Source: Minisyncoccota bacterium (lineage in GTDB: Bacteria; Patescibacteriota; Minisyncoccia; JAHIHE01; JAGLIN01). Taken from it: a stretch of DNA of 64,000 nt. The notes beneath the pieces are model-generated. The model was not told the DNA's origin. It made no database searches and worked only from the letters and a program-made list of their open reading frames with translations. A program made the position numbers and the translations under genes. The stretch covers positions 12,316 to 76,315 of the forward strand of contig JBAZUT010000002.1 of NCBI GenBank assembly GCA_041661265.1, written 5' to 3'. Below, piece after piece: positions 7,932 to 61,453 of this stretch; the stretch's first letter is position 1, and each line of letters starts with the position of its first letter.

Positions 7932-7939
7932 ATTAATAT

Positions 7940-41753: not shown

Positions 41754-41788
41754 ATAAAAAAATCCCGCTGAATTTTTCAGCAGGAATT
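41754..41788 (-). terminator. Rho-independent terminator ending the paralog-array transcription unit
   Basis: Minus strand aattCCTGCTGAAaaaTTCAGCGGGattttttt lies ~25 bp after the last array gene. Confidence 0.6.
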
Positions 41789-41809
41789 GTATGGTATATA
41801 TTTTCCACA

Positions 41810-42685
41810 CTAGCCGGATATCCACGTCATTCGAGGCCTTCGCGCGCCCTGTTCGTTTATTTTCCCATTATCTGACCCTCCGTTTTGAGTCAAAAATATT
41901 TGTCTTCCGCCTTTTTGTTTGCCTATTCCATATCCGTAGTGCGCCGGTTCAAAGAGTTCACTCTCCAATCTTCCGGATATTGTCAGACCGATAAAGAGCC
42001 TTCCGTCGCTCCCGATATATTGAGCGATCCCACACCCCTCAGGAGCAATAATGTTCATGCCTTTTGGCCCGGCCTTATCGCCCGTCGTCATTATCGTACA
42101 GCCTGCTTCCAGAAGCAGATCTTCAAAGCTTTTTGCTTCCTCTTTGCCCGACTCGTCACCGGCTGCGTCATTGTTCAATGCAGTTTCTTTACCACTGAGA
42201 CAGATTTCTCTTCCATTCATGAATATCCGGGTCTTTTCTTTGTCCGATCCATGGATCTCATTTTCATTTGAACCGGTTTCACCTTCGTCGTTTTCGCATT
42301 CTGTGCCCTTCTTTGTCCCCTTTTCTATCTCTTCCATTTTCCTTTCAGCCTTCTCAAGACTTGGTTTTTCTTGCCTTGAAAGCAGAACCTCCAAAACAGG
42401 CCACATGATCGAATCGATCTTGGGATATCCGTCAAGCTTGATGCTCCGGTCATTGTCCTCGCATCTTCCTGTGGCAAAGAGATATATCACCTTTCCCAGT
42501 TCATGCAATCCCTCTTCGAGGCTTGTTGCTGTTTCTCTGGATCCGAGATCGATCTCTTCAGTCAAAATATCCTGCTTCTGGAATATATAGTATTTTCCCT
42601 CTTCGGCTGCTTTTCCATACATCAAGAAAAGCCTCTCAAACGACTTTAGTAGCTCCTCGTCTTTCTCTTTTCCGATCTTTATCAT
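41810..42685 (-). CDS. Paralog-array member 10 (291 aa), type-B N-domain. C-terminus truncated or degenerate and lacks the family C-terminal NWYL(R/K)V domain
   Basis: The N-terminal 110 aa and leader are identical at DNA level to member 6 (45998..47272). It has an EGC(T) middle module. The sequence ends abruptly with GARRPRMTWISG. Confidence 0.7.
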   Translation of the reverse strand: MIKIGKEKDEELLKSFERLFLMYGKAAEEGKYYIFQKQDILTEEIDLGSRETATSLEEGLHELGKVIYLFATGRCEDNDRSIKLDGYPKIDSIMWPVLEVLLSRQEKPSLEKAERKMEEIEKGTKKGTECENDEGETGSNENEIHGSDKEKTRIFMNGREICLSGKETALNNDAAGDESGKEEAKSFEDLLLEAGCTIMTTGDKAGPKGMNIIAPEGCGIAQYIGSDGRLFIGLTISGRLESELFEPAHYGYGIGKQKGGRQIFLTQNGGSDNGKINEQGARRPRMTWISG

Positions 42686-42845
42686 ATCTTCGCTTCCTCC
42701 TTTTTCTTTGTGAGCATGATCAATACATTGATTTCAAGGTGCTTTCCTTTGAAGTCCCTCTCTGCCGTGCTGTTTATCTTAAACAGTATGGCGGAAAGAG
42801 AGGCAATGCCGGCTATTGTCGTTCAATAAGCGGGATTGCCGATGT
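42686..42845 (-). promoter_or_regulatory. Conserved array leader (copy 9): GGCAAT-loop-ATTGCC hairpin, CCTCTCTTTCCGCC...GGCAGAGAGGG hairpin, AAAGGAGGA RBS
   Basis: ~165-bp element repeated 9 times, immediately 5' of array genes. Confidence 0.55.
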
Positions 42846-43835
42846 TTAACTGATTACTAAGAACCAGCATTTTGACTTATCGCACACAGATACTATTCGT
42901 TTATCTTTTAGCTTTTCTTTCAGTTCACCTATGCCCTCTCCGCAAATATGTGATCCTTCCGGTGAGTACACCGTTTCTTTGTCATATTCATCTATAAACC
43001 CATTTTTCATAAGCGTTTCGCCACTTGAACAAAGCATATTCACAAGAGATGCTTCTGCATAATATTTCCAGCTGCAATGCTCGGAATCTATAGTTGCCAA
43101 TCCTTTGTTCAACCAAACAGACACCTCATCCAGATATTTTCCGGCATCTCTTCCGGCTATTTTTTTTCCTGTTTCAATATTAGACAAGATAACCGCATGG
43201 CCATAAACTACTTGGACCACTTTATATCCGAATTCTTTTAATGGAAATCGGGCATATGGCTTATCAGGGCTTCCTATGTGTATCTCGTCCCCGCCCTCCT
43301 TCGCCTTTGAGAATATATTTGTTCCTTCCGGAGCAAGAACGATCATGGATCCCGCTTCTATTCTCTTATTGGCGTCCTCTTCTCCTTCTTCCACTATATG
43401 CACAGTGCAGCCTTCGTCCAGCAGCAAGTCCTTCAAACTTTTTGCCTGTTTTATATTCTTGTCTGCGCCATCATGGACTTCTGTTATGCTCTTCTCAATT
43501 TCTTCAATGCTCGGAGCGTTTCCCTTCGAAAGCATTATCTGAAGTATCGGCCACATCATCGAATCGATCTTGGGATATCCGTCAAGCTTGATGCTCGGGT
43601 CGTTGTATTCCCAGATGCCGGTTGCGGCATAATAGATCACTCTTGCGAGTTCTCTCAGGCCTTCTTCCTCGCTTGATAGCGTTTCTCTTCCTTCAAGAGA
43701 TATGCCTTCCGCCACGATATCTTGGGGCAGGATCTTGTAATAGTTGCCTGCCTTGGCTCCTTTTTTGTACAGTTCAAGAAGCTCCCTCAGCGCTGCAAAA
43801 TAACCCTTATCTGTCTTTTCTTCGATCTTTATCAT
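42846..43835 (-). CDS. Paralog-array member 9 (329 aa), type-A N-domain (MIKIEEKTDKGYFAALRELLELYKKG...SIKLDGYPKIDSMMWP), EGC middle module, family C-terminal domain
   Basis: The N-domain is nearly identical to members 2, 4 and 5. The C-terminus reads ...GELKEKLKDKRIVSVCDKSKCWFLVIS. Confidence 0.75.
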   Translation of the reverse strand: MIKIEEKTDKGYFAALRELLELYKKGAKAGNYYKILPQDIVAEGISLEGRETLSSEEEGLRELARVIYYAATGIWEYNDPSIKLDGYPKIDSMMWPILQIMLSKGNAPSIEEIEKSITEVHDGADKNIKQAKSLKDLLLDEGCTVHIVEEGEEDANKRIEAGSMIVLAPEGTNIFSKAKEGGDEIHIGSPDKPYARFPLKEFGYKVVQVVYGHAVILSNIETGKKIAGRDAGKYLDEVSVWLNKGLATIDSEHCSWKYYAEASLVNMLCSSGETLMKNGFIDEYDKETVYSPEGSHICGEGIGELKEKLKDKRIVSVCDKSKCWFLVIS

Positions 43836-44003
43836 ATCTTCGCTTCCTCCTTTTTCCTTGTAAGCATGATCAATACATTGATTTCAAGGTGCTTTCCTTT
43901 GAAGTCCCTCTCTGCCATGCTGTTTATCTTAAACAGTATGGCGGAAAGAGAGGCAATCGGTCATCGTTTTTTTTCGATGGAATAATTGCCAAACATTTTA
44001 TTC
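43836..44003 (-). promoter_or_regulatory. Conserved array leader (copy 8); loop variant ggcaatcggtcatcgttttttttcgatggaataattgcc
   Basis: Identical to the leader at 52156..52323. Confidence 0.55.
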
Positions 44004-44861
44004 TTATTCGTAAACTTCTTTCAGGTACCACCTATTGGCGACTTTATCTTCTATAGATTCAATATCTCTATTGATGTTCTCCAACATAAATTTAAGCCTC
44101 TCTAATCCATGATTTTCTTTCGCTTTCTTATAGTTGAATTCTATTTTATCCAAACTCACTTTATGGATAAATCCCGCCTCGTCGCTTCCATGGTATATTG
44201 GAGTATTCATGTTAATCAGACATGTCGTCGGATCGAACAACCAGGTCCACTCACGAGAAAATATATAAGGCTCGCTTCCTTTTCGCGGCATTTTACTATT
44301 TCGATATTCGGTATTTATCCATTCAATTATTTCATTTATAAACCTTGCTCCATTTCTTATTTTTCTCCTTTCTTTTATTATTTCCGTCTCTACCTTTTCA
44401 ATTGTCGGCTTTTCTTCATTTGAAAGTAAGATTTTTAGCATTGGCCAGGAAATTGATTTTATCGGGATATAGCCATCTAGTTTAATACTGGGACAATTAT
44501 GTTCCCAATATCCGGTAATTTCAAAATATATCAGCTTTCCTAAGTTTTTTAATCCCTCCTCCACACTCTCTGCCCTATTTCTGCGCCGATAATTCGCAAT
44601 GGTCGAAATGAAATCTTCCGGTTTTCTTCTAAAATTGCTATGAAAAGGATCATCCGGCGAAAAAAGATACGCGGATTCCGGATCCCAATCGGCGCCATCA
44701 TATTTAGTTTTTTCTGCAAGATTAATCTTTTTCGTAAAAATATCTTCCCGCAAAAACAAAGGATATATCCCTTTTTCAGTTCCTTCACTAAACACTCTAA
44801 ATAGACTCTTCAATGCGACATGAATTCGCTCGTCATCTTTGTTTTCAATTTTCTTCACCAC
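44004..44861 (-). CDS. Paralog-array member 8 (285 aa), most divergent N-domain (with an inserted segment), different body
   Basis: Retains SIKLDGYIPIKSISWPMLKILLS and the tail NRWYLKEVYE. Confidence 0.65.
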   Translation of the reverse strand: MVKKIENKDDERIHVALKSLFRVFSEGTEKGIYPLFLREDIFTKKINLAEKTKYDGADWDPESAYLFSPDDPFHSNFRRKPEDFISTIANYRRRNRAESVEEGLKNLGKLIYFEITGYWEHNCPSIKLDGYIPIKSISWPMLKILLSNEEKPTIEKVETEIIKERRKIRNGARFINEIIEWINTEYRNSKMPRKGSEPYIFSREWTWLFDPTTCLINMNTPIYHGSDEAGFIHKVSLDKIEFNYKKAKENHGLERLKFMLENINRDIESIEDKVANRWYLKEVYE

Positions 44862-45016
44862 TGACTCCTCCTTCTTTTCAGATAAATATTCGCTATTTTG
44901 ATTTTAAGGTACTTTCCTATGAGTCCCTCGCTGTCATACTGTTCAGTCAAACAGTATGACGGAAAGAGAGGCAATTCCGTAAGTCTACTTTGCAACAAAC
45001 GGAATTGCCGATTTTT
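44862..45016 (-). promoter_or_regulatory. Conserved array leader (copy 7); perfect hairpin ggcaattccgt...acggaattgcc
   Basis: Seen in the sequence. Confidence 0.55.
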
Positions 45017-45823
45017 TTAGCACACTTTCAGATACCAAGACCCTGTATTATCCGTTATGGATATGGCCTTTTTGCCACTTAATTCGCTCTTCAGCTTTTC
45101 AAGGCCCATGATAAAACTTTTTGTATCGGTATATATCCAGAACCTGTTCCAGTCTTTCCCTATCTCCGCCACATCGCTTATGTCTATGAGTCCGTGCATT
45201 TGAAGAAAACCGATTCCGACTGAATTCCCCGGAAGCATCTTGAAAAGAGTATGATCTTCTTCCATGGACATCCAAACATATTTGCCCGACCCGAGTGACA
45301 CCGATTCTTCATAATGCTGCACAAGCCCTATAGCCGCCTGCAGAAGACTGTCGGCACCTGTCATGAAACAGCCTTTCTCGATCAGTAGATCCCATATGCT
45401 CTTTGTCTGCGTTCCGGTTATCTTCTCTACCGATACTTTTATGGGTGTACTTGTCACGCCATCCGCATCCTTGATCTTTTTTTCGATCTCTTTGATATCA
45501 GGCGGCTTGTCCTTCGAAAGCATCATCTCCAGAACAGGCCACATCATCGAATCGATCTTGGGATATCCGTCGAGCTTGATGCTCGGGTCATTGTATTCCC
45601 AGATGCCGGTTGCGGCATAATAGATCACTCTTGCGAGTTCTCTCAGGCCTTCTTCCTCGCTTGATAGCGTTTCTCTTCCTTCAAAAGATATGCCTTCCGC
45701 CATGATATCTTGGGGCAGGATCTTGTAATACATGCCTTCCTTGGCTCCTTTTTTGTACAGTTCAAGAAGCTCCCTCAGCGCTGCAAAATAACCCTTATCT
45801 GTCTTTTCTTCGATCTTTATCAT
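45017..45823 (-). CDS. Paralog-array member 7 (268 aa), type-A N-domain, body shared with member 1, C-terminal ...GKKAISITDNTGSWYLKVC
   Basis: Family N- and C-domains present. Confidence 0.75.
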   Translation of the reverse strand: MIKIEEKTDKGYFAALRELLELYKKGAKEGMYYKILPQDIMAEGISFEGRETLSSEEEGLRELARVIYYAATGIWEYNDPSIKLDGYPKIDSMMWPVLEMMLSKDKPPDIKEIEKKIKDADGVTSTPIKVSVEKITGTQTKSIWDLLIEKGCFMTGADSLLQAAIGLVQHYEESVSLGSGKYVWMSMEEDHTLFKMLPGNSVGIGFLQMHGLIDISDVAEIGKDWNRFWIYTDTKSFIMGLEKLKSELSGKKAISITDNTGSWYLKVC

Positions 45824-45997
45824 ATCTTCACTTCCTCCTTTTTCCTTGTAAGCATGATCAATACATTGATTTCAAGGTGCTTTCCTTTGAAGTCCCTCGC
45901 TGTCATGCTGTTTATCTTAAACAGCATGGCGGAAAGAGAGGCAATTCCGGCTATTGTCTTTCAATAAGCGGGATTGCCAAATATTATTTTCACTGGA
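45824..45997 (-). promoter_or_regulatory. Conserved array leader (copy 6)
   Basis: Seen in the sequence. Confidence 0.55.
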
Positions 45998-47272
45998 TCA
46001 GATTATCCGTACAGCCGTGCGAACGCCATATTTTTCATCAGTGTTTGACATCAGATGACTCACATGCATGTACACAAGACGGCTATTTTCGTGAAATCCC
46101 AAAGAATAAACGGAATCAGGCGAGTTTTTTCCGACAATACCCAAAATATATGGAGTATGCATACCGCCGATATGGGCATCTATCAATTCATTCGTGTTTT
46201 CCAGATGGATAATAGCAAGAGTGATCTGGTCCTCTGCGGATATTCCATCTTCTCCCTGATATGCGTCTGCCAAAAGAGATCCTAAATATCTCTTTGGACT
46301 CATCCCGCACTCAAGCTGCTTTCGTCCGCCAATAGTCTGACCGCCGCCCTTTGCCGGAAGGCACGCAAGATCCTCAACCAGAAGAACATTGAATGCGGAG
46401 CCGCTTGCCAATAACTCTTTTTTGGTTTTATTGGAACCGCCTCTTTGGCGATAGCTCACATTGCCATTCATATCCGCTTCTCTTTCAGTGCTCCAGATAA
46501 GAATCGGCTTTTCTGAATCAATATATAGTTTCCGGTTCTGTTCATCGTGATTTTGTTTGGCTCCGAACAATATTTCATTTGCGTCATGCCGCAGGATCAA
46601 TCTCCCGAATATCTCGACAAGATCGTTGAATTTCATGCCAAATGGAACGATCAGCAATTTGTTGAATCCCTGATCCCACTTAAACTTGAAAAAATCCCCG
46701 TTTTCTTTTATCATATCCGCTATTTCTTCAAATTCCGGGAAAGAGTATTCCTTTCCATCTATGCCCTTTATGCCCGATTCTCCGTTTGAGAGTATTCTGA
46801 TCACTCCCGTCTTTCGGAATATTTCCTTTTGGTTCTCATATTGCCGTTTCAGCTCTTCATAGCCGAACTCCGTAGTCTTTACAGACGTTTCTTCAGTTAT
46901 TCTCTTTTGCGTCAGCTCATTTAATATTTTTTCCGCTGCTTTAAGATTTGGAGATTCTCTCCTTGAAAGCAACAGTTCGAGTATCGGCCACATGATCGAA
47001 TCGATCTTGGGATATCCGTCAAGCTTGATGCTCCGGTCATTGTCCTCGCATCTTCCTGTGGCAAAGAGATATATCACCTTTCCCAGTTCATGCAATCCCT
47101 CTTCGAGGCTTGTTGCTGTTTCTCTGGATCCGAGATCGATCTCTTCAGTCAAAATATCCTGCTTCTGGAATATATAGTATTTTCCCTCTTCGGCTGCTTT
47201 TCCATACATCAAGAAAAGCCTCTCAAACGACTTTAGTAGCTCCTCGTCTTTCTCTTTTCCGATCTTTATCAT
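45998..47272 (-). CDS. Paralog-array member 6 (424 aa), type-B N-domain fused to a distinct ~300-aa C-terminal region, possibly enzymatic (Gly-rich LPAKGGGQTIGG, HIGGMHTPY)
   Basis: The N-domain and leader are identical to member 10. The rest is unrelated to the other members, and the family C-terminal tail is absent. Confidence 0.7.
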   Translation of the reverse strand: MIKIGKEKDEELLKSFERLFLMYGKAAEEGKYYIFQKQDILTEEIDLGSRETATSLEEGLHELGKVIYLFATGRCEDNDRSIKLDGYPKIDSIMWPILELLLSRRESPNLKAAEKILNELTQKRITEETSVKTTEFGYEELKRQYENQKEIFRKTGVIRILSNGESGIKGIDGKEYSFPEFEEIADMIKENGDFFKFKWDQGFNKLLIVPFGMKFNDLVEIFGRLILRHDANEILFGAKQNHDEQNRKLYIDSEKPILIWSTEREADMNGNVSYRQRGGSNKTKKELLASGSAFNVLLVEDLACLPAKGGGQTIGGRKQLECGMSPKRYLGSLLADAYQGEDGISAEDQITLAIIHLENTNELIDAHIGGMHTPYILGIVGKNSPDSVYSLGFHENSRLVYMHVSHLMSNTDEKYGVRTAVRII

Positions 47273-47436
47273 ATCTTCGCTTCCTCCTTTTTCTTTGTGA
47301 GCATGATCAATACATTGATTTCAAGGTGCTTTCCTTTGAAGTCCCTCTCTGCCGTGCTGTTTATCTTAAACAGTATGGCGGAAAGAGAGGCAATGCCGGC
47401 TGCATTATTTGCAGAACAAATTGCCTGATATGTAAT
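47273..47436 (-). promoter_or_regulatory. Conserved array leader (copy 5)
   Basis: Identical over its length to the leader at 42686..42845 except for the GGCAAT-hairpin loop. Confidence 0.55.
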
Positions 47437-48819
47437 TTACAGCACTCTTAGGAACCAGCCATTTTTTGATCCGTCATATACGGATTCTACGCGCCTGCCT
47501 TTCAGCTTTTCCCTTAATTCTCCTATTTTCTTTCCGGAAAAAGCGCTGACGCTCCATGTGAATAGCTCCGTCCATGGGACATGCACCCTGCTCTTCTTGT
47601 CCACCAATCCGGCCTCTTTGAACGGGTTGATATTCTTGACATCAAGATAAACCAAACCTTTTTTAGGATGATATTTCCAATGCAGCTGTTTAATATCTTC
47701 TGTCCAGATTATAATCTCCAGATCATCCAGAAATTTTCCAGCCTCTGTTCCTATCTGCATGTCGCGAGGCGCAATTCGTTTCAGATAGCATTTCTTCGAG
47801 CTTCCTGATCCGTTTGCACTATATCCATATTTTTTCGGCTCATATAGCTCTTCTCCGATCAGCTCTCCATATTTTTCCAGCGCTATCAATTGCCTGCCAT
47901 CACTGCCGACGTAATGAGCTATTCTGCATGCATTCGGTGCAATAACGATCAGATCGTCACCGTCCATTTCGATCTCACATCCCTCGCCAATAAGAAGATC
48001 TTCCAGCGATACTGCTTTTTTTTCTTCGACCTGTTTTTCGGTTACATCATTGGAATTGCCTGAATCTTTCTCGGCCTCGATTATCTTTGTCTCAATGTCC
48101 GGTTCAATTTTCCGCAAACGGATTTCATTTCCGCTTTCTCCGCTTATCTTATATCCATGCTGCATTAATGGATAGATGGCATATGTTTCATTGTCTGGTC
48201 TTGTAAATAAGATCTCATGCCCCGCATCTTTATACTGTCCGGACACTTTATTACCCACGGGTGGAACAACGATAACATCTGCCGCCCTTATATCCCGATG
48301 CGGATCTTCCTCTCCCGCTTTAACATTCGATAAAGTACAACCCTCTTGTAACAACAGGCATATAAGCCTTTCCGATTGTTCTTTGCCGGTTTCCTTAACA
48401 TTCAACGTCTCTGTGTCCTTCTTCTGTTCATCTTTGGTTTTGTTTTGACCGCCTTCTATTTGCCTGATCTCTGTCTCAACCATCTCAATACTTGGCATCG
48501 CTCCGCCTCTGGAAAGCATAATTTCGAGCACCGGCCAGAAGAACACTTTGATCGGCGGATATCCATCAAGCTTGATGCTCGGGTCGTTGTATTCCCAATT
48601 TCCGGTCATGGCATAATAGATAGCCTTTCCAAGTTCTCTCAGGCCTTCTTCCTCGCTTGATAGCGTTTCTCTTCCTTCAAGAGATATGCTTTCTGCCACG
48701 ATATCTTGGGGCAGGATCCTGTAATAGTTGCCTTCCTTGGCTCCTTTTTTGTACAGTTCAAGAAGCTCCCTCAGCGCTGCAAAATAACCCTTATCTGTCT
48801 TTTCATCGATCTTTATCAT
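47437..48819 (-). CDS. Paralog-array member 5 (460 aa), type-A N-domain, two tandem EGC middle modules, family C-terminal domain
   Basis: The middle module is duplicated (LLQEGCTLSNV... and LLIGEGCEIEMD...). The C-terminus reads ...GKKIGELREKLKGRRVESVYDGSKNGWFLRVL. Confidence 0.75.
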   Translation of the reverse strand: MIKIDEKTDKGYFAALRELLELYKKGAKEGNYYRILPQDIVAESISLEGRETLSSEEEGLRELGKAIYYAMTGNWEYNDPSIKLDGYPPIKVFFWPVLEIMLSRGGAMPSIEMVETEIRQIEGGQNKTKDEQKKDTETLNVKETGKEQSERLICLLLQEGCTLSNVKAGEEDPHRDIRAADVIVVPPVGNKVSGQYKDAGHEILFTRPDNETYAIYPLMQHGYKISGESGNEIRLRKIEPDIETKIIEAEKDSGNSNDVTEKQVEEKKAVSLEDLLIGEGCEIEMDGDDLIVIAPNACRIAHYVGSDGRQLIALEKYGELIGEELYEPKKYGYSANGSGSSKKCYLKRIAPRDMQIGTEAGKFLDDLEIIIWTEDIKQLHWKYHPKKGLVYLDVKNINPFKEAGLVDKKSRVHVPWTELFTWSVSAFSGKKIGELREKLKGRRVESVYDGSKNGWFLRVL

Positions 48820-48983
48820 ATCTTCACTTCCTCCTTTTTCTTTGTGAGCATGATCAATACATTGATTTCAAGGTGCTTTCCTTTGAAGCCCCTCTCTGCC
48901 ATGCTGTTTATCTTAAACAGTATGGCGGAAAGAGAGGCAATTCCGGCTATTGTCTTTCAATAAGCGGGATTGCCAAAATGTTT
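48820..48983 (-). promoter_or_regulatory. Conserved array leader (copy 4)
   Basis: Seen in the sequence. Confidence 0.55.
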
Positions 48984-49823
48984 TTATTCGCAAATCCTTA
49001 AATACCAGTTTTCCTCATTTTCATCATATACCGACACTATGCGCCTGCCATTCAATATTTTTTTCAAATCGTATATGTCACAGGATTTATCGGCGTTCGC
49101 CGGAAATGATATTTTTTCCGTCACATCGATAAACCCGCCATCCCTGAAAATATTCGCATCTCCTCTTGCATGCATGTCCACCAGACAACTTTTGACATCA
49201 TATGACCATTTCCAGTCAACTTCGTCCTTGAATCCTGTACGCTCTCGCATCCATGCAAAAACCTTGTCAAGAAATTCCCCGGCATCTCTTGTTTCTATAC
49301 TTGCATAGTGAAAGCACACAGGATATATCATCTTTCTGGCTTCCATCACCGTTTCTTCAAAAACACTTTCATCCAAACCGCCGAACATCAGGACAAGCTC
49401 TTTCAACAGCTGTTCTTTGTTCTTTTTTCCGCCTTCTGCCGTCTTTTCGCCCCTACCTTTTTTTTCCCCGGCCTCTTTTATTTTCTCTTCTATTCTGTCG
49501 ATGTCCGGAGCCTCTTGCCTGGACAGCATCATTTCCAGAACAGGCCACATCATCGAATCGATCTTGGGATATCCGTCGAGCTTGATGCTCCGGTCGTTGT
49601 CTTCGCAAATTCCGGTGACTGCGCGATAGGCGATCTTTCCCAATTCATGCAATCCGTCTTCAATGCTTGCTGCAGTTTGCCTGGATCCGGGATCGATCCT
49701 CTTCGCCACAAAATCTTCCGGTAAGAATTTATAATATTTCCCGTCTTTGGCTCCGTTTTTATACAACTCAAACAAATTCTTGAGCGATCTGAATATTTCA
49801 TCATCCGTCTTCTTTTCGGTCAT
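48984..49823 (-). CDS. Paralog-array member 4 (279 aa), divergent N-domain, family C-terminal domain. Translationally coupled to member 3 (18-bp gap, own RBS, no leader copy)
   Basis: MTEKKTDDEIFRSLKNLFELYKNG...SIKLDGYPKIDSMMWPVLEMMLS. The C-terminus reads ...GRRIVSVYDENEENWYLRICE. Confidence 0.7.
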   Translation of the reverse strand: MTEKKTDDEIFRSLKNLFELYKNGAKDGKYYKFLPEDFVAKRIDPGSRQTAASIEDGLHELGKIAYRAVTGICEDNDRSIKLDGYPKIDSMMWPVLEMMLSRQEAPDIDRIEEKIKEAGEKKGRGEKTAEGGKKNKEQLLKELVLMFGGLDESVFEETVMEARKMIYPVCFHYASIETRDAGEFLDKVFAWMRERTGFKDEVDWKWSYDVKSCLVDMHARGDANIFRDGGFIDVTEKISFPANADKSCDIYDLKKILNGRRIVSVYDENEENWYLRICE

Positions 49824-49841
49824 TATCCTGCCTCCTCAAAT

Positions 49842-50921
49842 TCATTCCTCGCATACTCGCAAATACCAATTGCCCCTTCTGTCCAGCACGGACAGAACTT
49901 TTTTTCCTTTCAGCTCCTCTTTTAACCCGTTCATACCATAGGCGAAGCCTTCTATCGAATAGTATGCCCTGCCTGTTACCGTCGTGATATTCTTGAATTC
50001 AACCGCTTCTTTTTCATCTATGAAACCGCCATTTTCGAATAATGCAACGCCTGCATGATCATTCGGTATCATTTTTATGAGATTCTTTTCTCTGTTGGAA
50101 GCCCATAATATCATGCCCGTCACATTATCAAATTTCAGTTCTCTCGCATATGCCTTCGCAAAATTTATCACTTCATCGATGAATTTTTCCGCATCTCTTT
50201 GGGCTGATCGGTCATGTCCGGCCTCAATCCTTCTCAGATGGACTTCGTTTCCGTGATATTTGTTTCTTATTTTGTAGCCGAATTCTTTTAACAGGTATTC
50301 ATAAAATATCCTATCCGGCCTTTCTATGCGGATCCTTACTCCATCATCTTTGCATAAAGCAAGTATTTTGCATCCTTCCGGCGCGATCACGATCAAGTCG
50401 CCCGCCTTGATGTCCTTGCTTGGATTCTTGCTTTCTTGCCTTAATGTCAGCACGGTACAGCCTATGTTGATCAATATACCCTTCAGGTCTTTTGTTTGCG
50501 CTATATTCGACCACTTTCCGGATATCTCAGCTTCGGATCCCCTTGCCCCCGTGTCAGCTTGAGCCGACCCGAATATTTCTTCGATCCTTCCGATGCTTGG
50601 CGCTTCTGCCTTTGAAAGCAGAACCTCAAGCGCGGGCCAAAAGAATATCTTGATAGGCGGATAGCCGTCTATCTTGATGCTTGGATCGTTGTGCTCCCAG
50701 GTACCGGTCGCATAAAAATAGATCGCTTTCCCAAGCTCTCTAAGCCCCTCTTCGGCGCTTGCTGCGGTTTTTCTGGATGCGAAAGAAATATTCTCTGCCA
50801 GAACATCATCCTGCAGAAATAAGTAATATCTTCCCTCCCCAGCTTCTCTCGCATACAGTTCAAAAAGTTTCTTGAACGATTTGAACAGTTCTTCGTCCGT
50901 TTTCTTTCCGATCTTCATCAT
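49842..50921 (-). CDS. Paralog-array member 3 (359 aa), divergent N-domain, EGC-type middle module, family C-terminal domain
   Basis: MMKIGKKTDEELFKSFKKLFELY...SIKIDGYPPIKIFFWPALEVLLS. The C-terminus reads ...GKKVLSVLDRRGNWYLRVCEE. Confidence 0.75.
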   Translation of the reverse strand: MMKIGKKTDEELFKSFKKLFELYAREAGEGRYYLFLQDDVLAENISFASRKTAASAEEGLRELGKAIYFYATGTWEHNDPSIKIDGYPPIKIFFWPALEVLLSKAEAPSIGRIEEIFGSAQADTGARGSEAEISGKWSNIAQTKDLKGILINIGCTVLTLRQESKNPSKDIKAGDLIVIAPEGCKILALCKDDGVRIRIERPDRIFYEYLLKEFGYKIRNKYHGNEVHLRRIEAGHDRSAQRDAEKFIDEVINFAKAYARELKFDNVTGMILWASNREKNLIKMIPNDHAGVALFENGGFIDEKEAVEFKNITTVTGRAYYSIEGFAYGMNGLKEELKGKKVLSVLDRRGNWYLRVCEE

Positions 50922-51081
50922 CTCTGTTTCCTCCTTCTTCTTCCATGAACAAAACTGATACTTTTGATTTCAAGGTGCTTTCCAAAAAGTCCCTCGCTGT
51001 CATGCTGTTTGGTTGAACAGTATGACGGAAAGAGAGGCAATACCGCTTGTTTTTTTCACAAAAGGGATTGCCGATATTTAT
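50922..51081 (-). promoter_or_regulatory. Conserved array leader (copy 3)
   Basis: Seen in the sequence. Confidence 0.55.
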
Positions 51082-52155
51082 TCAGCAAACTTTCAAAAAC
51101 CATCCATTATTCGATCCATCATATACAGATAATATGCGCTTGCCCCAAAGCTTTTCTTCCAATTCGCTGACGCTTTTTCCCGTATCTGAAAATAAGCCCC
51201 AGGAAACTATATTCAGCAAAGAAACTTTCACTCTTTCTTTTTTGTCAATGAATCCGGCTTCTGTCAGCCCCTTGGTGTCCTTAAACTCGATATATACCAA
51301 AGCTTTTTTGGCATTATATGTCCAATACAGGTCTCCTTTGAATCCCCGTTGCCCCCACAGAAATAATTCCAGATCATGCAGGAACTCTTTTGCGTCCCAA
51401 GTTTGAAGTTTGTGCAAACGGATCTCCTTTTCGTTGATCTCTTCTGATATTTCGTACTCGTCTCCTCCAACATAATATTCAACATTTGTCCCATTTGATC
51501 TAAAGATAATTATTCCAATCCCATGGATCGAAACCAATTTGAATATTTTTCCTCCGCTAGGAGCCAGCACGCTCAGGTCTTCCTCCGCATTGCTTCTTCT
51601 CGGATGATCTTTTCCTTTTATAGCATTTATCCGGCACCCTTCATTGGTCAAAAAATATGTCAAGGCATTATTCGGCACTTTTCTGGTTTTATTTTCAAGC
51701 ACCGGCTCGACTATTTTTTCCTCTTTGCCCGTTTCTCCGTCTATAACCTTCTCTGTTTCAACGGGAGCTATTTCGTCTTCTTTTGCGCCCTTTTCAATTT
51801 CTTTTATCTTTGCCTCGATATCATCAACGCCCTGTATTTTTGTTTTCGAAAAAATGATCTCCAGAACAGGCCACATCATCGAATCGATCTTGGGATATCC
51901 GTCGAGCTTGATGCTCCGGTCGTTGTATTCCCAGATGCCGGTTGCGGCATAATAGATCACTCTTGCGAGTTCTCTCAGGCCTTCTTCCTCGCTTGATAGC
52001 GTTTCTCTTCCTTCAAGAGATATGCCTTCCGCCACGATATCTTGGGGCAGGATCTTGTAATAGTTGCCTGCCTTGGCTCCTTTTTTGTACAGTTCAAGAA
52101 GCTCCCTCAGCGCTGCAAAATAACCCTTATCTGTCTTTTCTTCGATCTTTATCAT
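51082..52155 (-). CDS. Paralog-array member 2 (357 aa), type-A N-domain, EGC middle module, family C-terminal domain
   Basis: N-domain nearly identical to member 9. The C-terminus reads ...GKRILSVYDGSNNGWFLKVC. Confidence 0.75.
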   Translation of the reverse strand: MIKIEEKTDKGYFAALRELLELYKKGAKAGNYYKILPQDIVAEGISLEGRETLSSEEEGLRELARVIYYAATGIWEYNDRSIKLDGYPKIDSMMWPVLEIIFSKTKIQGVDDIEAKIKEIEKGAKEDEIAPVETEKVIDGETGKEEKIVEPVLENKTRKVPNNALTYFLTNEGCRINAIKGKDHPRRSNAEEDLSVLAPSGGKIFKLVSIHGIGIIIFRSNGTNVEYYVGGDEYEISEEINEKEIRLHKLQTWDAKEFLHDLELFLWGQRGFKGDLYWTYNAKKALVYIEFKDTKGLTEAGFIDKKERVKVSLLNIVSWGLFSDTGKSVSELEEKLWGKRILSVYDGSNNGWFLKVC

Positions 52156-52323
52156 ATCTTCGCTTCCTCCTTTTTCCTTGTAAGCATGATCAATACATTG
52201 ATTTCAAGGTGCTTTCCTTTGAAGTCCCTCTCTGCCATGCTGTTTATCTTAAACAGTATGGCGGAAAGAGAGGCAATCGGTCATCGTTTTTTTTCGATGG
52301 AATAATTGCCATTACATTGTTAT
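52156..52323 (-). promoter_or_regulatory. Conserved array leader (copy 2)
   Basis: Identical to 43836..44003. Confidence 0.55.
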
Positions 52324-53181
52324 TCACACCACTTTCAAATACCAGTTACCTTTTTTGTCCAATATGGACATGATCTTCTTTCCACTCAATTCGGTCTTCA
52401 GCTTTTCAAGCCCGTATATAAAGCTTTTTTTATCCGAATAAATGATGATCCTATCCCATTTTTCAATGATCTCCGGAATCTGGCTTTTCTCGATCAAGAA
52501 GCCTGTCTTTTCAAGCATCTCGATCAATCTGGCATTATCCGGGATCATTTTATAAAGAGTCCGGTCTTTCTGTGCCGATACCCATACCCACTTATAGATC
52601 CCGATTCCCAATGCTTCCTCGTGGGCATTTGCGTTTTTTATAACCAAGCCGAGTATCGCTCCGGAATCCATAACGGTGCAGCCCTGTACGAGCGACCGGT
52701 CGAATGAAATATCCGATCGGATGTCATTTATTTTTATTACGGGTATGCTTTCGACTTTCTTCTTGTCTTCTTCGATCTCGTTGATCTTCCTGTTGATCTC
52801 CTTGATCTTCCTGCCGATCTTTTCAATTTCAACTTTTTTGTCCTTCGAAAGCATCATCTCCAGAACCGGCCAGGTCATTGATTCGATCGGCGGATAGCCG
52901 TCGATCTTGATGCTCGGGTCGTTATATTCCCAAAACCCGGTAGCCGCGAAATAAACGGCTTTTCCCAATTGACTCAGTCCATCTTCAAGGCTCATCGCAG
53001 TTTCTCTGGATCCGGCATCAACCTTTTCCGCCAAAATATCATTTGGTAAAAAGATGTAATATTTCCCATTCTTGGCTCCTTTAACATATTTCTCAAAGAG
53101 ATTGCTCAGTCCCTTAAACAGATTGGCATCTTTTTTCTTTTCGATCTTCAACATCGCATATTCCTCCTCTGTCTTTTCCAA
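52324..53181 (-). CDS. Paralog-array member 1 (285 aa), divergent N-domain, body related to member 7, family C-terminal tail
   Basis: ...SIKIDGYPPIESMTWPVLEMMLS. The C-terminus reads ...GKKIMSILDKKGNWYLKVV. Confidence 0.75.
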   Translation of the reverse strand: MEKTEEEYAMLKIEKKKDANLFKGLSNLFEKYVKGAKNGKYYIFLPNDILAEKVDAGSRETAMSLEDGLSQLGKAVYFAATGFWEYNDPSIKIDGYPPIESMTWPVLEMMLSKDKKVEIEKIGRKIKEINRKINEIEEDKKKVESIPVIKINDIRSDISFDRSLVQGCTVMDSGAILGLVIKNANAHEEALGIGIYKWVWVSAQKDRTLYKMIPDNARLIEMLEKTGFLIEKSQIPEIIEKWDRIIIYSDKKSFIYGLEKLKTELSGKKIMSILDKKGNWYLKVV

Positions 53182-53354
53182 TAGTCTGAACTAGTATCTT
53201 CATTTCAAGGTGCTTTCCAAAAGTCCCTCGCTGTCATACTGTTCGCTCTGAACGGTCTGACGGAAAGAGAGGCAATGCCGGACGCCGCTTTCATGGCTGA
53301 CCGGAATTGCCGAAATGTTCTATATATTTTCTTTTTAAGCTCAGAATGAGCATT
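53182..53354 (-). promoter_or_regulatory. Conserved array leader (copy 1), between the AAA+ ATPase gene and the first array gene
   Basis: Contains the ggcaatgccggacgccgctttcatggctgaccggaattgcc hairpin variant. Confidence 0.55.
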
Positions 53355-55172
53355 TTATGTTTTCACTCCCGAGCCTGCACCATTCAACTCGGCTTCTGCA
53401 TCATTCAATATCTTCTCCCAATTCTCCGGCCGAAGATGCTTTGAGCTTCCTCTGATCGCAAGCACGATCTGCTTGTTTATTTCCTGCGGATCAAGGCTTC
53501 TTTCCCATTCCTCAATGGCCTGGTAAAGATTCGCTTCTCTTACGGAAGCGCCTCCTTCTCTGGCGGATATCCTATCCGCTTCAAGGACCATCCATTCCAC
53601 ATCCGCTCCGGTAACATATTTCTTTTCCACCAGCAGACGGGCAAATTTCGAAAAGTCCCTGATCTCGGTCGGGATCCCGTATCGTGCGAACATCACGCTG
53701 AATATGTTCGGATATTCGTTCTCGATCGGCAAACCGAACGGAATTATTTCATCGGATCTGCCTTTTCTCTTATAGGCCGGATCGACAAGATCGGGCCGGT
53801 TGGTGATCCTCACCCAGATAACCTTTCCTCTTATGTCAGGCCTGGAACAGAATTCGAATTTCTTCTGCCTCAGGCGGTTGGAAACTCCGGAATCGCCGTT
53901 ATAAGCGTCGCGGCCTCCTTCCGACTGGTCGGCTTCGTCCTCGACGACGATCACCGGCGCAAGGTCTTCCAGGCAGGCAAGTATCATCTGCATATACCTT
54001 TCGGACTCTCCGACATACATATTGCGTGGATTTTGTATCTCAACGAAATTGAATCCGCATTCAAATGCCCAGCACTCGAATAGGAAGGTCTTTCCGGTTC
54101 CCGGAGGACCCGCCGCAAGTATGCCCATCGGAACACGCCTCATCATCCCTGCCAGAATATTGTCATTCACTTCGCGAAGATACCTCTTGACGTTTTCTTT
54201 TCCGCCGAAATAATTGAATCCCCACTTGGGAATCTTAATTTTTACGCGGTCACCGAATTCTTTTTCAAGGATCGTCTTTTTTTCCTCCTTTATCAGGTCC
54301 AGGCTCAAAGGGACCTTGCTGTAGGAAGCTTGCTCATAAATGCCTTTGATCTGTTTTACGGACAAGCCCGACGTGCAGATGCCCAGCATTTGCGCGTTTA
54401 CATTGCTTTCCACATTTATCCTTTTTTGCCCGATAAGTTCCTGCCAAAGCTTGACTCTTTCCTCCATATTGGGTTTTGGGATCCGAATGGCGGGGATATC
54501 TGTCTGAGTGGACCTCAATGGTTCGGCCAGATCACCTATATTCGGCGTGATCAATATCATAGTGTTCCCTGTCGCGCCAACATCCCTGTCCTGAGCCAAT
54601 CGCTCCAAAGTTTCCACGACCAGACGGTCCTGAATGCTCTGATGAGCCGATGCGGCCGGAACCAGGTTGTGGGCGAAAGATATTATCACGACTTTTTTCA
54701 GGATATTTCCTGAAATATCAAGTTTTTCCGCCGTCTTCTTTTCGATCCTTGAAACCAGAAGATTGTCCCTCATGATCCTGGCAAGCAGCGGCAAAACGAT
54801 CTCCGGCGTCTTTCCTCCGATCAATTCGTCGATGGAAAGCTCATTCGCGGATCTTTGCTGCACTCCGATCGCCTTATTTTGCGCTGCGGTTGTCCGGGGC
54901 GCCATGCTTTGATCTTCGAGCAGATATTGCTGCCTGAATATTTTCTCCATATCTTCATTGGGAAATCGTATCCCTGTCGAAATGGAATAGAGAATAACCA
55001 TCCTCTGCCTGAAATATTCCTCTGCAAGCTCCTGATCCAGGGTGACATAGTCGCCCTTCATGTTCTTCTGAAAATCTCCTGTATTCCCCCATATAACAAG
55101 AAGGTTTGTTCCGAGAGCTAAATTTCTCATCAGCTCATCTTGCCACACCATAACATCATCTCCTTTTTGCAT
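53355..55172 (-). CDS. Classical-clade AAA+ ATPase (605 aa) with ~330-aa N-terminal domain of unknown function
   Basis: Walker A GPPGTGKT, Walker B VIVVEDEADQ, and a second region of homology ITNRPDLVDPAYKRKGRSD carrying Arg fingers. Confidence 0.85.
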   Translation of the reverse strand: MQKGDDVMVWQDELMRNLALGTNLLVIWGNTGDFQKNMKGDYVTLDQELAEEYFRQRMVILYSISTGIRFPNEDMEKIFRQQYLLEDQSMAPRTTAAQNKAIGVQQRSANELSIDELIGGKTPEIVLPLLARIMRDNLLVSRIEKKTAEKLDISGNILKKVVIISFAHNLVPAASAHQSIQDRLVVETLERLAQDRDVGATGNTMILITPNIGDLAEPLRSTQTDIPAIRIPKPNMEERVKLWQELIGQKRINVESNVNAQMLGICTSGLSVKQIKGIYEQASYSKVPLSLDLIKEEKKTILEKEFGDRVKIKIPKWGFNYFGGKENVKRYLREVNDNILAGMMRRVPMGILAAGPPGTGKTFLFECWAFECGFNFVEIQNPRNMYVGESERYMQMILACLEDLAPVIVVEDEADQSEGGRDAYNGDSGVSNRLRQKKFEFCSRPDIRGKVIWVRITNRPDLVDPAYKRKGRSDEIIPFGLPIENEYPNIFSVMFARYGIPTEIRDFSKFARLLVEKKYVTGADVEWMVLEADRISAREGGASVREANLYQAIEEWERSLDPQEINKQIVLAIRGSSKHLRPENWEKILNDAEAELNGAGSGVKT

Positions 55173-55190: not shown

Positions 55191-55322
55191 TTATCCGCAC
55201 ATCCCTTCATAGTTCACCTTCACTTCTATCCCGACTGCCTGCAAGATATCCCGCAGAAAATGAGAATCGTCATGAGAGCTGGCATTGATCTCTACGCGTC
55301 CTTCAAAAACACTGACGCTCAT
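55191..55322 (-). CDS. Tiny protein (43 aa), FEG...LQAVGIEV motif, paralog of the adjacent 69-aa gene (DUF2997-like?)
   Basis: The internal ATG at 55322 lies right after the stop of the upstream 69-aa gene. The ORF-track 85-aa version overlaps that gene in another frame, so its N-terminus is rejected. Confidence 0.35.
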   Translation of the reverse strand: MSVSVFEGRVEINASSHDDSHFLRDILQAVGIEVKVNYEGMCG

Positions 55323-55326
55323 AAAT

Positions 55327-55536
55327 TCACGCGCGGATCTTTTCTTTTCCGACGACAGGTTCTTTTTCTTTTTCTTTTCTTCTTCCGTTCTGGACATCTG
55401 TTTCAACTCCCATTTTTTCAAGCAATGACCTGATTTTAAGCTCTTCATAGTCGCACGTTTTGTTCGGAAATCCTTCGAAATCCATCTCGATCTTCCCGTC
55501 TTTTAGCCTGATAGCAACCTTTCTCATTTCATTCAC
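55327..55536 (-). CDS. Small protein (69 aa), DUF2997-like pattern (IRLKDGKIEMDFEGFPNKTCDYEELKIRSLLEKMGV)
   Basis: Overlaps the upstream 170-aa gene by 8 nt, suggesting translational coupling. The assignment to DUF2997 is from memory of that family's consensus. Confidence 0.45.
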   Translation of the reverse strand: MNEMRKVAIRLKDGKIEMDFEGFPNKTCDYEELKIRSLLEKMGVETDVQNGRRKEKEKEPVVGKEKIRA

Positions 55537-56041
55537 CAGCTTTCATCCCGACGACATTGAAGCTTTGTCTGCCGTCGCCTATCGAATATTTCTCAGTCGG
55601 TTCGATCCTGTATCCGAGAATTTCAAGAGCGGCTTTCGCGGCTTCGAGAAGATATGCATCCGTGAACATCTTCTTGAGGCGCATTATCTCTTCTTTCCAT
55701 TCGCTCCTGTATTCGTCAGCAGCGAACCGGACCACTCCGTTCTTCATTGTTATTCCCAAACCATTTGGAAGCTTTGAAGTTTTCAGCGCGCCGATGATCT
55801 TCTGACCGCCAAAGGACTTGGTTTCATTGCGGCCAAAGTCGCAAATATGGTCCGTGATCTCGACTCCCTGGCTTTCCAAGGTTTTGAAAGCGCCCTGTAT
55901 GCATTCCTCGATGACATCATCAAGCTCCAGATCTTCTATGATCTTTGCGAATTTGGGGTCTTTCAGCCGAAGCTCGTTCAGCATTTCATTCATGTTCTCC
56001 GTTGCGCTCAATTGAGCGTTCATCCATACGATCTTACTCAT
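55529..56041 (-). CDS. Hypothetical protein (170 aa) coupled to the DUF2997-like gene (possibly DUF1257-like partner)
   Basis: Intact ORF. Its C-terminal AAKAALEILGYRIEP weakly resembles DUF1257/Ycf35. Weak inference. Confidence 0.45.
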   Translation of the reverse strand: MSKIVWMNAQLSATENMNEMLNELRLKDPKFAKIIEDLELDDVIEECIQGAFKTLESQGVEITDHICDFGRNETKSFGGQKIIGALKTSKLPNGLGITMKNGVVRFAADEYRSEWKEEIMRLKKMFTDAYLLEAAKAALEILGYRIEPTEKYSIGDGRQSFNVVGMKAGE

Positions 56042-60796: not shown

Positions 60797-61453
60797 CTAA
60801 GCTTTTTTTCTTCTGTATAATTTATGTTCTTTTATATATTCGATCACTCTCGGATCAACCAGCCCGTCAATCGGCCTATCTTCCGAAACGAGCCGCCGTA
60901 TCAGAGTCCCCGAACCGACAAGACCCTCGATCTCGATCACCTCGGAATGCGGAGGCAAGTCGTCCGGCTTCGCTTCATATCCCGGTCTCATAATGATCAA
61001 AAAATTCAGATTGTTCCATATTTCCGGCCCCTTGTTCCAAGCGGCCTGAATTTCGGAATTATTCCTGCATCCTCCGGCTATCAGATCCTCGCCGATGAGA
61101 TGCCAGATCTCGGCATTGGGATGAAGTTCCTGATATTTTTCCTGAACAAGATATGTCGGCGTAAATATATTATTTTCCAGATCATCGAGATCAAGCCTGA
61201 CCCTGGGAATATTCTCAAACGCTATCTTCGCCATTTCCATCCTGTCATGGATCGAGGTCTCATTCGTTGTCGATTTGTCCTCGCGGAAACCGCATGGGAT
61301 CACATAGACAAAATCAAATAATTTTGTAAGTTCCATCGCGATTATCTGGTGCGGTATATGCGGAGGATTCATGCTTCCTCCGACGATCACCACCCTTTCT
61401 TTTCCTTTGCGTCTATACAATTCATTCACCTCTTTAATACACGATAAAATCAC
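60797..61453 (-). CDS. Nicotinate/nicotinamide mononucleotide adenylyltransferase (NadD/NMNAT)-family nucleotidyltransferase
   Basis: GGSMNPPHIPH matches the (H/T)xGH cytidylyltransferase-fold motif GGSFNPxHxxH. Length 218 aa. Confidence 0.7.
   Translation of the reverse strand: MILSCIKEVNELYRRKGKERVVIVGGSMNPPHIPHQIIAMELTKLFDFVYVIPCGFREDKSTTNETSIHDRMEMAKIAFENIPRVRLDLDDLENNIFTPTYLVQEKYQELHPNAEIWHLIGEDLIAGGCRNNSEIQAAWNKGPEIWNNLNFLIIMRPGYEAKPDDLPPHSEVIEIEGLVGSGTLIRRLVSEDRPIDGLVDPRVIEYIKEHKLYRRKKA

Follow-up and report, generated by a model that had tools for sequence, protein, structure and literature searches.

The cofactor families of Cdc48/p97/VAT share one docking domain (UBX, SHP, PUB). 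In type VIIb secretion, EssB combines a complete pseudokinase fold of two lobes with one transmembrane (TM) helix, EssC is an FtsK/SpoIIIE ATPase, and other genes of the type VII secretion system (T7SS) accompany them. Polymorphic toxins combine a conserved N-terminal trafficking region with a polymorphic toxin tip, each being followed by an immunity gene. To our knowledge, the only non-catalytic kinase derivative described so far that consists of the C-lobe alone is the eukaryotic KIND domain (SPIRE, PTPN13, very-KIND). It serves as a module for binding proteins (PMC11231147, PMC2064798), and in SPIRE it binds the FSI peptide of formin (PMC11231147). Conflict systems with effector-associated domains are built on STAND or MoxR-vWA cores, have the same adaptor domain on core and effector, and employ recognisable enzymes or pore-formers as effectors (Kaur, Burroughs, Iyer, Aravind 2020, PMC7159879). 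Here we compare with these systems a locus from a Minisyncoccota bacterium in which the gene for a classical-clade AAA+ ATPase is followed by a tandem array of ten paralogous genes (m1 to m10). The locus lies in a stretch of 64,000 nucleotides (assembly GCA_041661265.1, contig JBAZUT010000002.1, positions 12,316 to 76,315), called the window, in whose coordinates all positions are given unless another contig is named.

The AAA+ cassette

The ten paralogs (268-460 aa) are encoded in tandem at 41810-53154 (-), and the AAA+ gene (53355-55172, -) lies upstream of them in the direction of transcription (ORF list; ORF for open reading frame); array, AAA+ gene and cassette are all on the minus strand. 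Ten co-directional genes of this size behind a classical AAA+ ATPase had been noticed in an earlier annotation made from the letters of the stretch alone (the sequence-only reading), and all of them were found. Gene order at related loci shows that the array is the expanded copy of the last gene of a rare conserved cassette, which reads A, B, C, AAA+, partner.

The linkage set consisted of seven contigs of 10-112 kb (L001, L007, L008, L011, L012, L013 and, without DNA, one contig of the Joint Genome Institute, JGI). A partner gene stands directly downstream of the AAA+ gene (555-835 aa) in 7/7, so that the linkage of ATPase and array assumed by the sequence-only reading recurs at every related locus read; upstream of the AAA+ gene, likewise in 7/7, a 165-174-aa gene is followed by one or two 60-70-aa genes. 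Identities of the orthologs to the window proteins (local BLAST) are 47-69% for the AAA+ ATPase, 35-63% for protein A and 30-68% for the small proteins. The partner gene is single in distant lineages, with a possible second one in the JGI contig; in close relatives there are two or more (L001, L009), and L010 shows a further copy 8.6 kb off on the L001 contig. The cassette neighbours differ from locus to locus and are housekeeping genes (ftsA-ftsZ, priA-def-fmt, murC, lgt, ahcY); the distant loci, where the gene sits among ftsA/ftsZ, priA-def-fmt and murC, are not in defence islands, and secretion-system genes adjoin none of the seven cassettes. At L008, 2 kb downstream of the cassette (7678-10251 of that contig), lies the gene for an 857-aa protein that carries Vault_3 and major-vault-protein shoulder domains.

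The AAA+ ATPase of the window (605 aa) has a degenerate N-terminal P-loop-like region and one active classical-clade AAA module (residues 351-480), which matches PF00004 with 1.6e-21 and has its best solved relatives in VAT/Cdc48 D2 (6e-48). Its translation contains Walker A (GPPGTGKT), Walker B (VVEDEAD), the pore loop MYVG (NMYVGE) and arginine fingers R-x-G-R (KRKGRSD); Walker A and B, pore aromatic, the arginine fingers of the second region of homology and the lid of a classical-clade AAA+ unfoldase are thus all present. Matches to the CDC48 and PAN subfamilies of NCBIfam stay below the full-length cut-offs, and in PADLOC there are only weak matches of the IetA type. The orthologs of L007 (5476-7827), L008 (2136-4520) and L011 (7484-9856) have an N-terminal extension of ~190 aa with SH3-like repeats, which is absent in the window. 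A homology of this extension to the C-terminal repeats of two proteins of the partner search (P0016, P0044) was considered and not used, one weak local match being all that was found.

Protein A (55529-56041, -; 170 aa), encoded by the first gene of the conserved cassette, has orthologs of 165-174 aa in the same position in L001 (63% identity), L007, L008, L011, L012 and L013; it has no match in Pfam or among PDB sequences. Protein B (55327-55527, -; 66 aa), whose gene overlaps those of A and C and is absent from the ORF list, has orthologs of 67-70 aa in all related loci. Protein C (55191-55322, -) comprises 43 aa when started from an internal ATG, the ORF running to 55448, and B and C are paralogs of each other. 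In all five aligned lineages protein C ends E-[GS]-[MW]-C-G (E-G-M-C-G in the window; L001, L007, L008 and L011). This invariant Cys-Gly end suggests a functional C-terminus, which might be, for example, a processing, conjugation or metal site. An identity of A, B and C with DUF2997/DUF1257 was considered and was not confirmed by Pfam: DUF2997 is matched by protein B of L007 alone (E 0.056, 13.8 bits versus a cut-off of 24.1), and DUF1257 by none of the three.

The window is bacterial chromosome and not phage, since it codes for PriA, MgtE, tRNA-Pro, a 2453-aa Tc/RHS toxin and a protein recognised by eye that we take to be ribosomal protein L27. Collections of viral contigs and phages contain no match for the N-terminal domain of the array proteins, m2, protein A or the AAA+ ATPase; a phage origin was therefore rejected, despite PHROG matches to the AAA+ module. 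The toxin (7940-15301, -) is of the Tc/RHS type with SpvB, TcdB middle/N, FG-GAP, RHS repeats and two LamG domains. A link of the array to this toxin, which lies 27 kb away, was likewise rejected, there being neither a shared domain nor synteny. A 311-aa ORF at 6302-7237 (-) contains an IS200-like Y1 transposase domain.

The partner proteins and their N-terminal domain

A hidden Markov model (HMM) of the N-terminal domain (N-domain, ~115 aa) finds exactly ten copies in the six-frame translation of the window, all of them in the array (E 1e-50 to 1e-61), and that of the C-terminal domain (C-domain) finds 8/10 members (m1-m5, m7-m9; E 1e-26 to 1e-37), m1 and m7 having a divergent version; m6 and m10 contain neither the C-domain nor remnants of it, and fragments do not occur elsewhere in the window. 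The alignment of the ten N-domains has 28 invariant columns, which include R50, E57, G59, L60, Y68, T72 and G73 as well as S81-I82-K83, D85-G86-Y87 and W95-P96. The C-domain closes with the block GKRIxSVxDxxxNWYLKV. Between the two domains can stand a Mid module ('Cys module'), a discrete beta-rich unit of ~93 aa, of which m2, m3, m9 and m10 have one each and m5 has two; Foldseek gives for it weak matches of high root-mean-square deviation to ribosomal protein uL6.

Structure prediction identifies the N-domain as a stand-alone, catalytically dead protein-kinase C-lobe that comprises helices alphaE to alphaI. Modelled with AlphaFold2 from 22 sequences of the family, m9 reaches a mean predicted local distance difference test (pLDDT) score of 85, with 83-94 for blocks across residues 11-120. 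The highest-probability Foldseek matches to this model are kinases (GAK 0.93, PLK4 0.84). The N-domain is the part of the model that matches the kinase fold, as is evident from an aligned length of 112-123 residues and from residues 9-129 being all-helical. The architecture of a C-lobe (alphaE, catalytic-loop region, alphaF-alphaI) is found. An N-lobe is not: Gly-rich loop, VAIK lysine and alphaC glutamate are missing, the alphaE-equivalent helix (H9-28) opens the domain, and there is no place for an N-lobe because the domain starts at residue 1, without coding sequence upstream of it. HRDxKxxN and DFG are both missing, and with them the catalytic Asp, Lys and Asn; the array proteins have NYYKILPQD and SLEG in the equivalent places, and distant members have YPIFPPEKI. 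What is retained is a short stretch resembling an activation segment, with the invariant residues R50, T52, S55 and E57.

From mapping by eye and from the hhalign register we infer that xALRELLELYKKGAKAG corresponds to alphaE, that NYYKILPQDIVA replaces HRDLKPENIL, ISLEG the DFG strand and SxEEGL the APE motif, and that alphaH starts with WPxLxxxLS. Pkinase of Pfam does not match the N-domain, nor does any Pfam family at E<=1 match any of the ten. When its profile is compared with the kinase-like protein whose gene lies 4 kb upstream, the match is not significant (E 0.54), but it places EEGLRELARVIYYAATG against the alphaF helix SSDLYSIGKCMIYALGG of that protein. Open-access papers and preprints yielded no account of the AAA+ cassette or of a bacterial domain that consists of the C-lobe alone.

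Other searches with the partner proteins gave little. None of the ten members has a match in Pfam, NCBIfam or PADLOC, and the single PHROG match (m1 to an acetyltransferase, E 0.0059) is sub-threshold; nor does any of them contain an enzymatic, toxin or pore-forming domain recognisable in these four libraries. PDB sequence searches with profiles of N-domain, C-domain and protein A yielded no significant match, and the C-domain modelled alone matched no fold and no kinase. A hydropathy scan predicts no TM segment in any member, and the N-termini are hydrophilic. The sequence-only reading thus saw correctly that N- and C-terminal domains are shared, that m6 has a C-terminal region of its own, that m10 is truncated, and that the proteins have no signal peptides and are presumably cytoplasmic; it recognised neither terminal domain as a named family, and the sequence libraries name neither. 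Structure prediction, which it had advised as a check, returns the kinase C-lobe. Nor was that reading refuted on its own terms, since no family of housekeeping enzymes matches and the ATPase linkage recurs at related loci.

The members differ in what follows the N-domain. In m1 (52324-53154, -; 276 aa) and m7 (45017-45823, -; 268 aa) it is the divergent C-domain; m1 starts with the ATG at 53154, not with the TTG at 53181, for GAGGAGG lies 8 nt upstream and the ortholog of the sister strain (contig L003; 86% identical) begins at the equivalent Met. The N-domain of m2 (51082-52155, -; 357 aa; ortholog in L003 77% identical) is followed by a linker, one Mid module and the C-domain, that of m3 (49842-50921, -; 359 aa; 89% identity across the 200 aa available in L003) by one Mid module and a C-domain with an insert, that of m4 (48984-49823, -; 279 aa) by a helical hairpin and the C-domain, and that of m5 (47437-48819, -; 460 aa) by two Mid modules and the C-domain. 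In m8 (44004-44861, -; 285 aa) the N-domain itself is interrupted by a 42-aa insert before the C-domain follows. The member chosen for the structure model, m9 (42846-43835, -; 329 aa), has one Mid module and the C-domain, whereas m10 (41810-42685, -; 291 aa) has a long acidic linker and one Mid module without C-domain.

In m6 (45998-47272, -; 424 aa) the N-domain is fused to an unrelated module of ~310 aa (45998-46930, -). This module recurs free-standing in 28 other proteins (P0052-P0079), which have no Pfam domain on record, are 330-450 aa long (~360-390), begin with a coiled coil and end GVRSAVRV; the sole homolog with an organism name is from Gottesmanbacteria, and one adjoins a restriction-modification (R-M) gene of the MmeI type. 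The proteins m7 (WC788_01775) and m6 (WC788_01780) are deposited as hypothetical proteins of a Candidatus Paceibacterota metagenome-assembled genome, their contig being 249,682 bp long.

The family is rare. When 1.84 billion cluster representatives were searched with the N-domain profile (HMMER), 51 proteins matched at E<=0.001: nine are from the genome of the window, about ten from close relatives with the same architecture, and the rest are distant (25-30% identity). Most of the distant homologs consist of the N-domain, 3-4 predicted TM helices and a tail of ~200 aa, and a smaller group of N-domain and a soluble tail of ~230 aa ('WWL' type), so that one N-domain occurs with different C-terminal types (among them TM type, soluble 'WWL', array type and m6 fusion); the 51 proteins of this exhaustive search include none of AAA length. 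P0048, a repetitive Ig-like protein, was discarded as a false positive. The organism-named homologs of the cassette are all from Patescibacteria, the only named distant member being a 'Patescibacteria group bacterium'; this taxonomic range rests on the names attached to few proteins because the indexed and pattern searches had poor recall. A word-indexed protein search recovered only three N-domain proteins, recall being low, and pattern scans of the GTDB species representatives with the close and the distant N-domain alignments found, with poor recall, no relative. With the C-domain the word-indexed search recovered nothing, not even the proteins of the window, a recall so low that confinement of the C-domain to the family is unproven.

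Upstream of the cassette lie genes that are not part of the conserved set. The kinase-like protein mentioned above (59418-60557, -; 379 aa) is probably a pseudokinase, having HNKINPSH for HRDLKPEN in the catalytic loop and DWS for DFG; its N-terminal ~100 aa look J-domain-like by eye, and its best PADLOC matches are the MkoA and PD-T4-6 kinases. The adjacent 519-aa protein (57854-59413, -), which matches phrog_2971 (5e-47), phrog_1735 (4e-25) and faintly DUF2135 and has no Pfam assignment, appears by eye to be vWA-like in its N-terminal half (DVTRS) and to form a beta-sandwich in the C-terminal one. Between these two genes and the cassette, at 56362-57729 (-), a divergent adenylosuccinate-synthetase homolog is encoded (Pfam 6e-70; 207 bits versus the 402-bit equivalog cut-off of NCBIfam), which matches the phage PurZ-type family phrog_1211 (2e-67). 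Upstream of the kinase-like gene are a nicotinamide-nucleotide adenylyltransferase-like gene, recognised by eye from its GGSMNPPHIPH motif (60797-61453, -), and the gene of a 306-aa protein with a faint match to the pyruvate-kinase barrel (61648-62568, -).

Intergenic units and evolution of the array

A unit of ~165 nt precedes 9/10 genes (m1, m2, m3, m5, m6, m7, m8, m9 and m10); an example is 52156-52323 (-). The exception is m4, which begins 18 nt past m3 without an intergenic element, and the m4-type gene of L001 shows the same 18-nt spacing. Each unit starts with a terminator-like stem (GGCAAT...ATTGCC) enclosing a variable inner hairpin and continues with UCUCUUUCC, a conserved 20-bp hairpin (hairpin 2), the promoter-like box GCACCTTGAAATC (TTGAAA) and the Shine-Dalgarno sequence AAGGAGG. 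The core motif ATTGCCTCTCTTTCCGYCAKRC occurs exactly 9 times in the window, only in these units, versus 0 expected. The array is closed by a strong intrinsic terminator (41763-41785, -) with a 10-bp stem and then T7, the stop codon of m10 being located 25 nt before it.

The nine copies of hairpin 2 are at 53224-53270, 52225-52271, 50990-51035, 48889-48935, 47342-47388, 45893-45939, 44924-44969, 43905-43951 and 42755-42801. In 12 distinct copies (window, L001, L003, L009) hairpin 2 is 90% paired with six compensatory pairs, a pairing and covariation that 0 of 500 shuffles reached; slid controls gave at most 2. When the outer stem is counted, pairing is better on the sense than on the antisense strand (89.8% vs 82.6%), and the idea of an antisense RNA was dropped for this reason. 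Hairpin 2 may be an RNA element or a protein-binding palindrome; no credible Rfam family was found for the intergenic element, and RNAalifold predicts an alternative in which the 5' arm of hairpin 2, UCUCUUUCC, pairs with the downstream Shine-Dalgarno sequence. In the distant loci L007, L008 and L011, AAA+ and partner gene are separated by the same arrangement of strong hairpin, second hairpin, TTGAAA/TTTACA box and Shine-Dalgarno sequence. In the Paceibacterota lineage of the window, the whole unit of terminator hairpin, conserved hairpin, promoter-like box, Shine-Dalgarno sequence and partner gene was duplicated in tandem up to ten copies.

Two long tracts are shared by non-adjacent members. 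The 394 nt at 51918-52311 (-), from -156 to +238 relative to the start codon of m2 and therefore comprising its upstream region and first 238 nt, are 100% identical to 43598-43991 (m9), and the 416 nt at 46986-47401 (-), from -129 to +287 of m6, are 100% identical to 42399-42814 (m10); m2, m5, m7 and m9 are 93-100% identical over the same 5' span. Beyond the identical tracts the identity of the paralogs falls sharply to ~40-58%. These tracts stem from recent gene conversion or recombination, because the sister-strain orthologs differ there at dS 0.35-0.54. Promoter and N-domain are homogenised among the paralogs (concerted evolution), and the proteins differ by domain shuffling, carrying 0-2 Mid modules, the shared C-domain or the foreign 310-aa module.

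Orthologs of m1, m2 and m3 are present in the same order in L003, a 3-kb contig of a sister strain from another metagenome; in L001 an m1-type gene is directly followed by an m4-type gene; and L002 and L004, fragments from another sample that follow the window collinearly with 100% identity, represent the same organism. Nei-Gojobori estimates for m1-m3 of the window versus L003 (dS 0.25-0.62 overall) gave a dN/dS (ratio of nonsynonymous to synonymous substitutions) of 0.08-0.28 for the N-domain, 0.27-0.33 for the middle and 0.11-0.19 for the C-domain. With values of 0.08-0.33 in all regions, purifying selection acts on each paralog. There is no sign, in the middle or elsewhere, of the diversifying selection for which the sequence-only reading had asked to look. 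Of its 'hypervariable' middle, the discrete Cys modules (0-2 copies) and the other inserts remain; the variation itself is modular shuffling, each paralog being conserved across strains.

Proposed function and comparison with known systems

We tentatively propose, giving it somewhat less than an even chance, that the ten paralogs are interchangeable adaptors that provide one unfoldase with different targets or locations. The C-lobe domain would be a protein-protein docking module like KIND and would tether each partner to the AAA+ hexamer or to A, B and C, and the variable C-terminal parts would redirect the machine to different targets or locations. The single-copy TM-type homologs would anchor it in the membrane; the ten-gene array would lead it to soluble targets. 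One unfoldase would then be served by many adaptors with one docking domain, as in the case of the Cdc48/p97 cofactors. In favour of this are the linkage in all seven contigs, the rarity of the family, the varied C-termini behind one N-domain, the purifying selection and KIND as a precedent; concerted evolution of the N-domain, too, would be expected of paralogs that all have to fit a single partner. Several points weigh against the proposal. The contact of adaptor and machine is deduced only from synteny, and the linkage comes throughout from metagenome contigs of uncultured organisms. The C-domain is conserved in 8/10 members, so the variable part is small for target recognition, and 'target binding' is a guess because a fold or function can be recognised neither in the C-domain nor in the Mid module. 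Tandem repeats alone can give gene conversion, without selection. Finally, the data also fit partners that are substrates instead of adaptors.

Patescibacteria are ultra-small and are thought to depend on a host cell. A bolder form of the adaptor proposal, which we regard as rather unlikely, sees in the cassette a new machine of these bacteria: a remnant of the kinase fold, recruited independently, would be the universal docking handle of a Cdc48-like unfoldase, and the array a set of programmable retargeting handles, possibly including targets at the host interface; protein C with its invariant C-terminal Cys-Gly might then be a tag that is conjugated or processed.

That the array proteins are clients of the AAA+ ATPase, which are unfolded, activated, exported or degraded with the C-lobe as recognition tag and possibly reach the host of this presumed epibiont as cargo, is in our opinion unlikely. 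A constant N-domain, a variable rest and a dedicated upstream ATPase do resemble the cargo families of secretion ATPases, as known in general; the pore loop is intact, so that the ATPase can probably thread polypeptides; and the expansion of the family is seen in an organism that is expected to rely on a host. Cargo is nevertheless hard to reconcile with seven cassettes none of which adjoins secretion-system genes, with commonest homologs that are integral membrane proteins of 3-4 TM helices, and with members that have low dN/dS, no recognisable toxin or enzyme domain and a C-terminal domain that is conserved rather than polymorphic. Quite doubtful is the conflict or defence system suggested by the sequence-only reading, in which an NTPase recruits the ten paralogs as an effector array via an adaptor domain. 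An NTPase gene followed by paralogs with a shared terminal domain would fit, as would the kinase-like (MkoA, PD-T4-6), vWA-like and PurA/PurZ-like genes just upstream, the free-standing homolog of the m6 module beside an MmeI-type R-M gene, and recombination among the members, which could yield variants. The members themselves, however, have 0 PADLOC matches and the ATPase only those of the IetA type; effector domains are lacking, and the orthologs are under purifying selection. The adaptor domain is absent from the ATPase and from A, B and C, contrary to the homotypic logic of such systems (PMC7159879). The six other lineages have one or two partners and housekeeping neighbours, without kinase, vWA or PurA genes, and nothing similar is found in phage or viral collections. 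The proposed resemblance is therefore not supported; of the adaptor-like termini there remains an N-domain that acts as a shared module fused to varied C-terminal parts, without effectors and without homotypic pairing.

Two further explanations have little to recommend them. The C-lobe domains could be decoys or scaffolds in Ser/Thr-kinase signalling that dock onto a Hanks-type kinase or are phosphorylated by it, and whose complexes the AAA+ ATPase remodels. This is very improbable: the N-domain derives from the kinase fold, keeps the activation-segment-like stretch with its four invariant residues and has a kinase-like gene 4 kb upstream, but the product of that gene, with HNK for HRD and H for the catalytic-loop Asn, is probably inactive, the gene is absent at the other six cassette loci, and nothing links phosphorylation to the cassette. 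Most improbable appears to us that the array is chiefly a recombination substrate, whose identical 5' segments serve to swap, delete or duplicate cassettes so that the variants present or expressed differ within the population, although this could overlie any functional reading. The perfect direct repeats of 394 and 416 nt between non-adjacent members have sharp edges and array content varies by lineage (L001 versus L003), yet the order m1-m2-m3 is kept in the sister strain, L002/L004 are unchanged and collinear, no recombinase or invertase is adjacent, and no member lacks a promoter-like box and Shine-Dalgarno sequence of its own, so that there are no silent cassettes.

Whatever the function, spending ~14 kb on cassette and ten paralogs in the tiny genome of a member of the Patescibacteria implies strong selection. 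The strict synteny names candidate partners of the N-domain (AAA+, A, B, C) and gives an entry into the cell biology of uncultured candidate phyla. The array is also a clean bacterial tandem case of concerted evolution, in which regulatory region and docking domain are homogenised and the payloads remain distinct.

Compared with the conflict systems of Kaur, Burroughs, Iyer, Aravind 2020 (PMC7159879), the locus has in common an NTPase gene and, behind it, genes in which a shared adaptor-like terminal domain is joined to variable parts; it differs in core type, in homotypic adaptor pairing and in recognisable effectors, all of which are lacking at the array locus. To call an 'NTPase plus paralog array' a defence system requires evidence from effectors or context. 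The array is no set of polymorphic toxins either, for the extreme C-terminus is conserved, a toxin domain is missing, and there are no small interleaved genes since the intergenic regions are regulatory repeats. Distant homologs with a cytoplasmic N-domain derived from the kinase fold, TM helices and a C-terminal domain, encoded beside an ATPase, are reminiscent of EssB/YukC of type VIIb secretion. T7SS genes are, however, absent here, and the AAA+ ATPase is classical, whereas EssC belongs to FtsK/SpoIIIE. The likeness was prompted by PMC13037476 and PMC9436818.

There is also a similarity to Cdc48/p97, a classical-clade ATPase in which one ATPase likewise has many partners composed of a constant domain and variable parts. 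The docking domain here is unrelated to UBX and the others, a single active AAA module stands behind a degenerate one, and the three small cassette proteins have no counterpart. With KIND the N-domain shares that both are stand-alone C-lobes without N-lobe and catalytic residues at the N-terminus of multidomain proteins. The two differ in that there is no match at sequence level (no Pfam family at E<=1 on the array N-domains), and in that the partners of KIND are cytoskeletal proteins, whereas the genomic partner here is the AAA+ cassette. Since the KIND proteins known to us are eukaryotic and the named homologs of the array family come from Patescibacteria, we infer that the N-domain originated independently of KIND; if this is right, it would be a convergent counterpart of the animal KIND domain and would show a C-lobe reused in bacteria, too, as a binding module. 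A classical AAA+ ATPase with a modular partner family and a kinase-fold derivative used non-catalytically are both of known kind, and there is a real chance that the cassette as a whole is a new machine.

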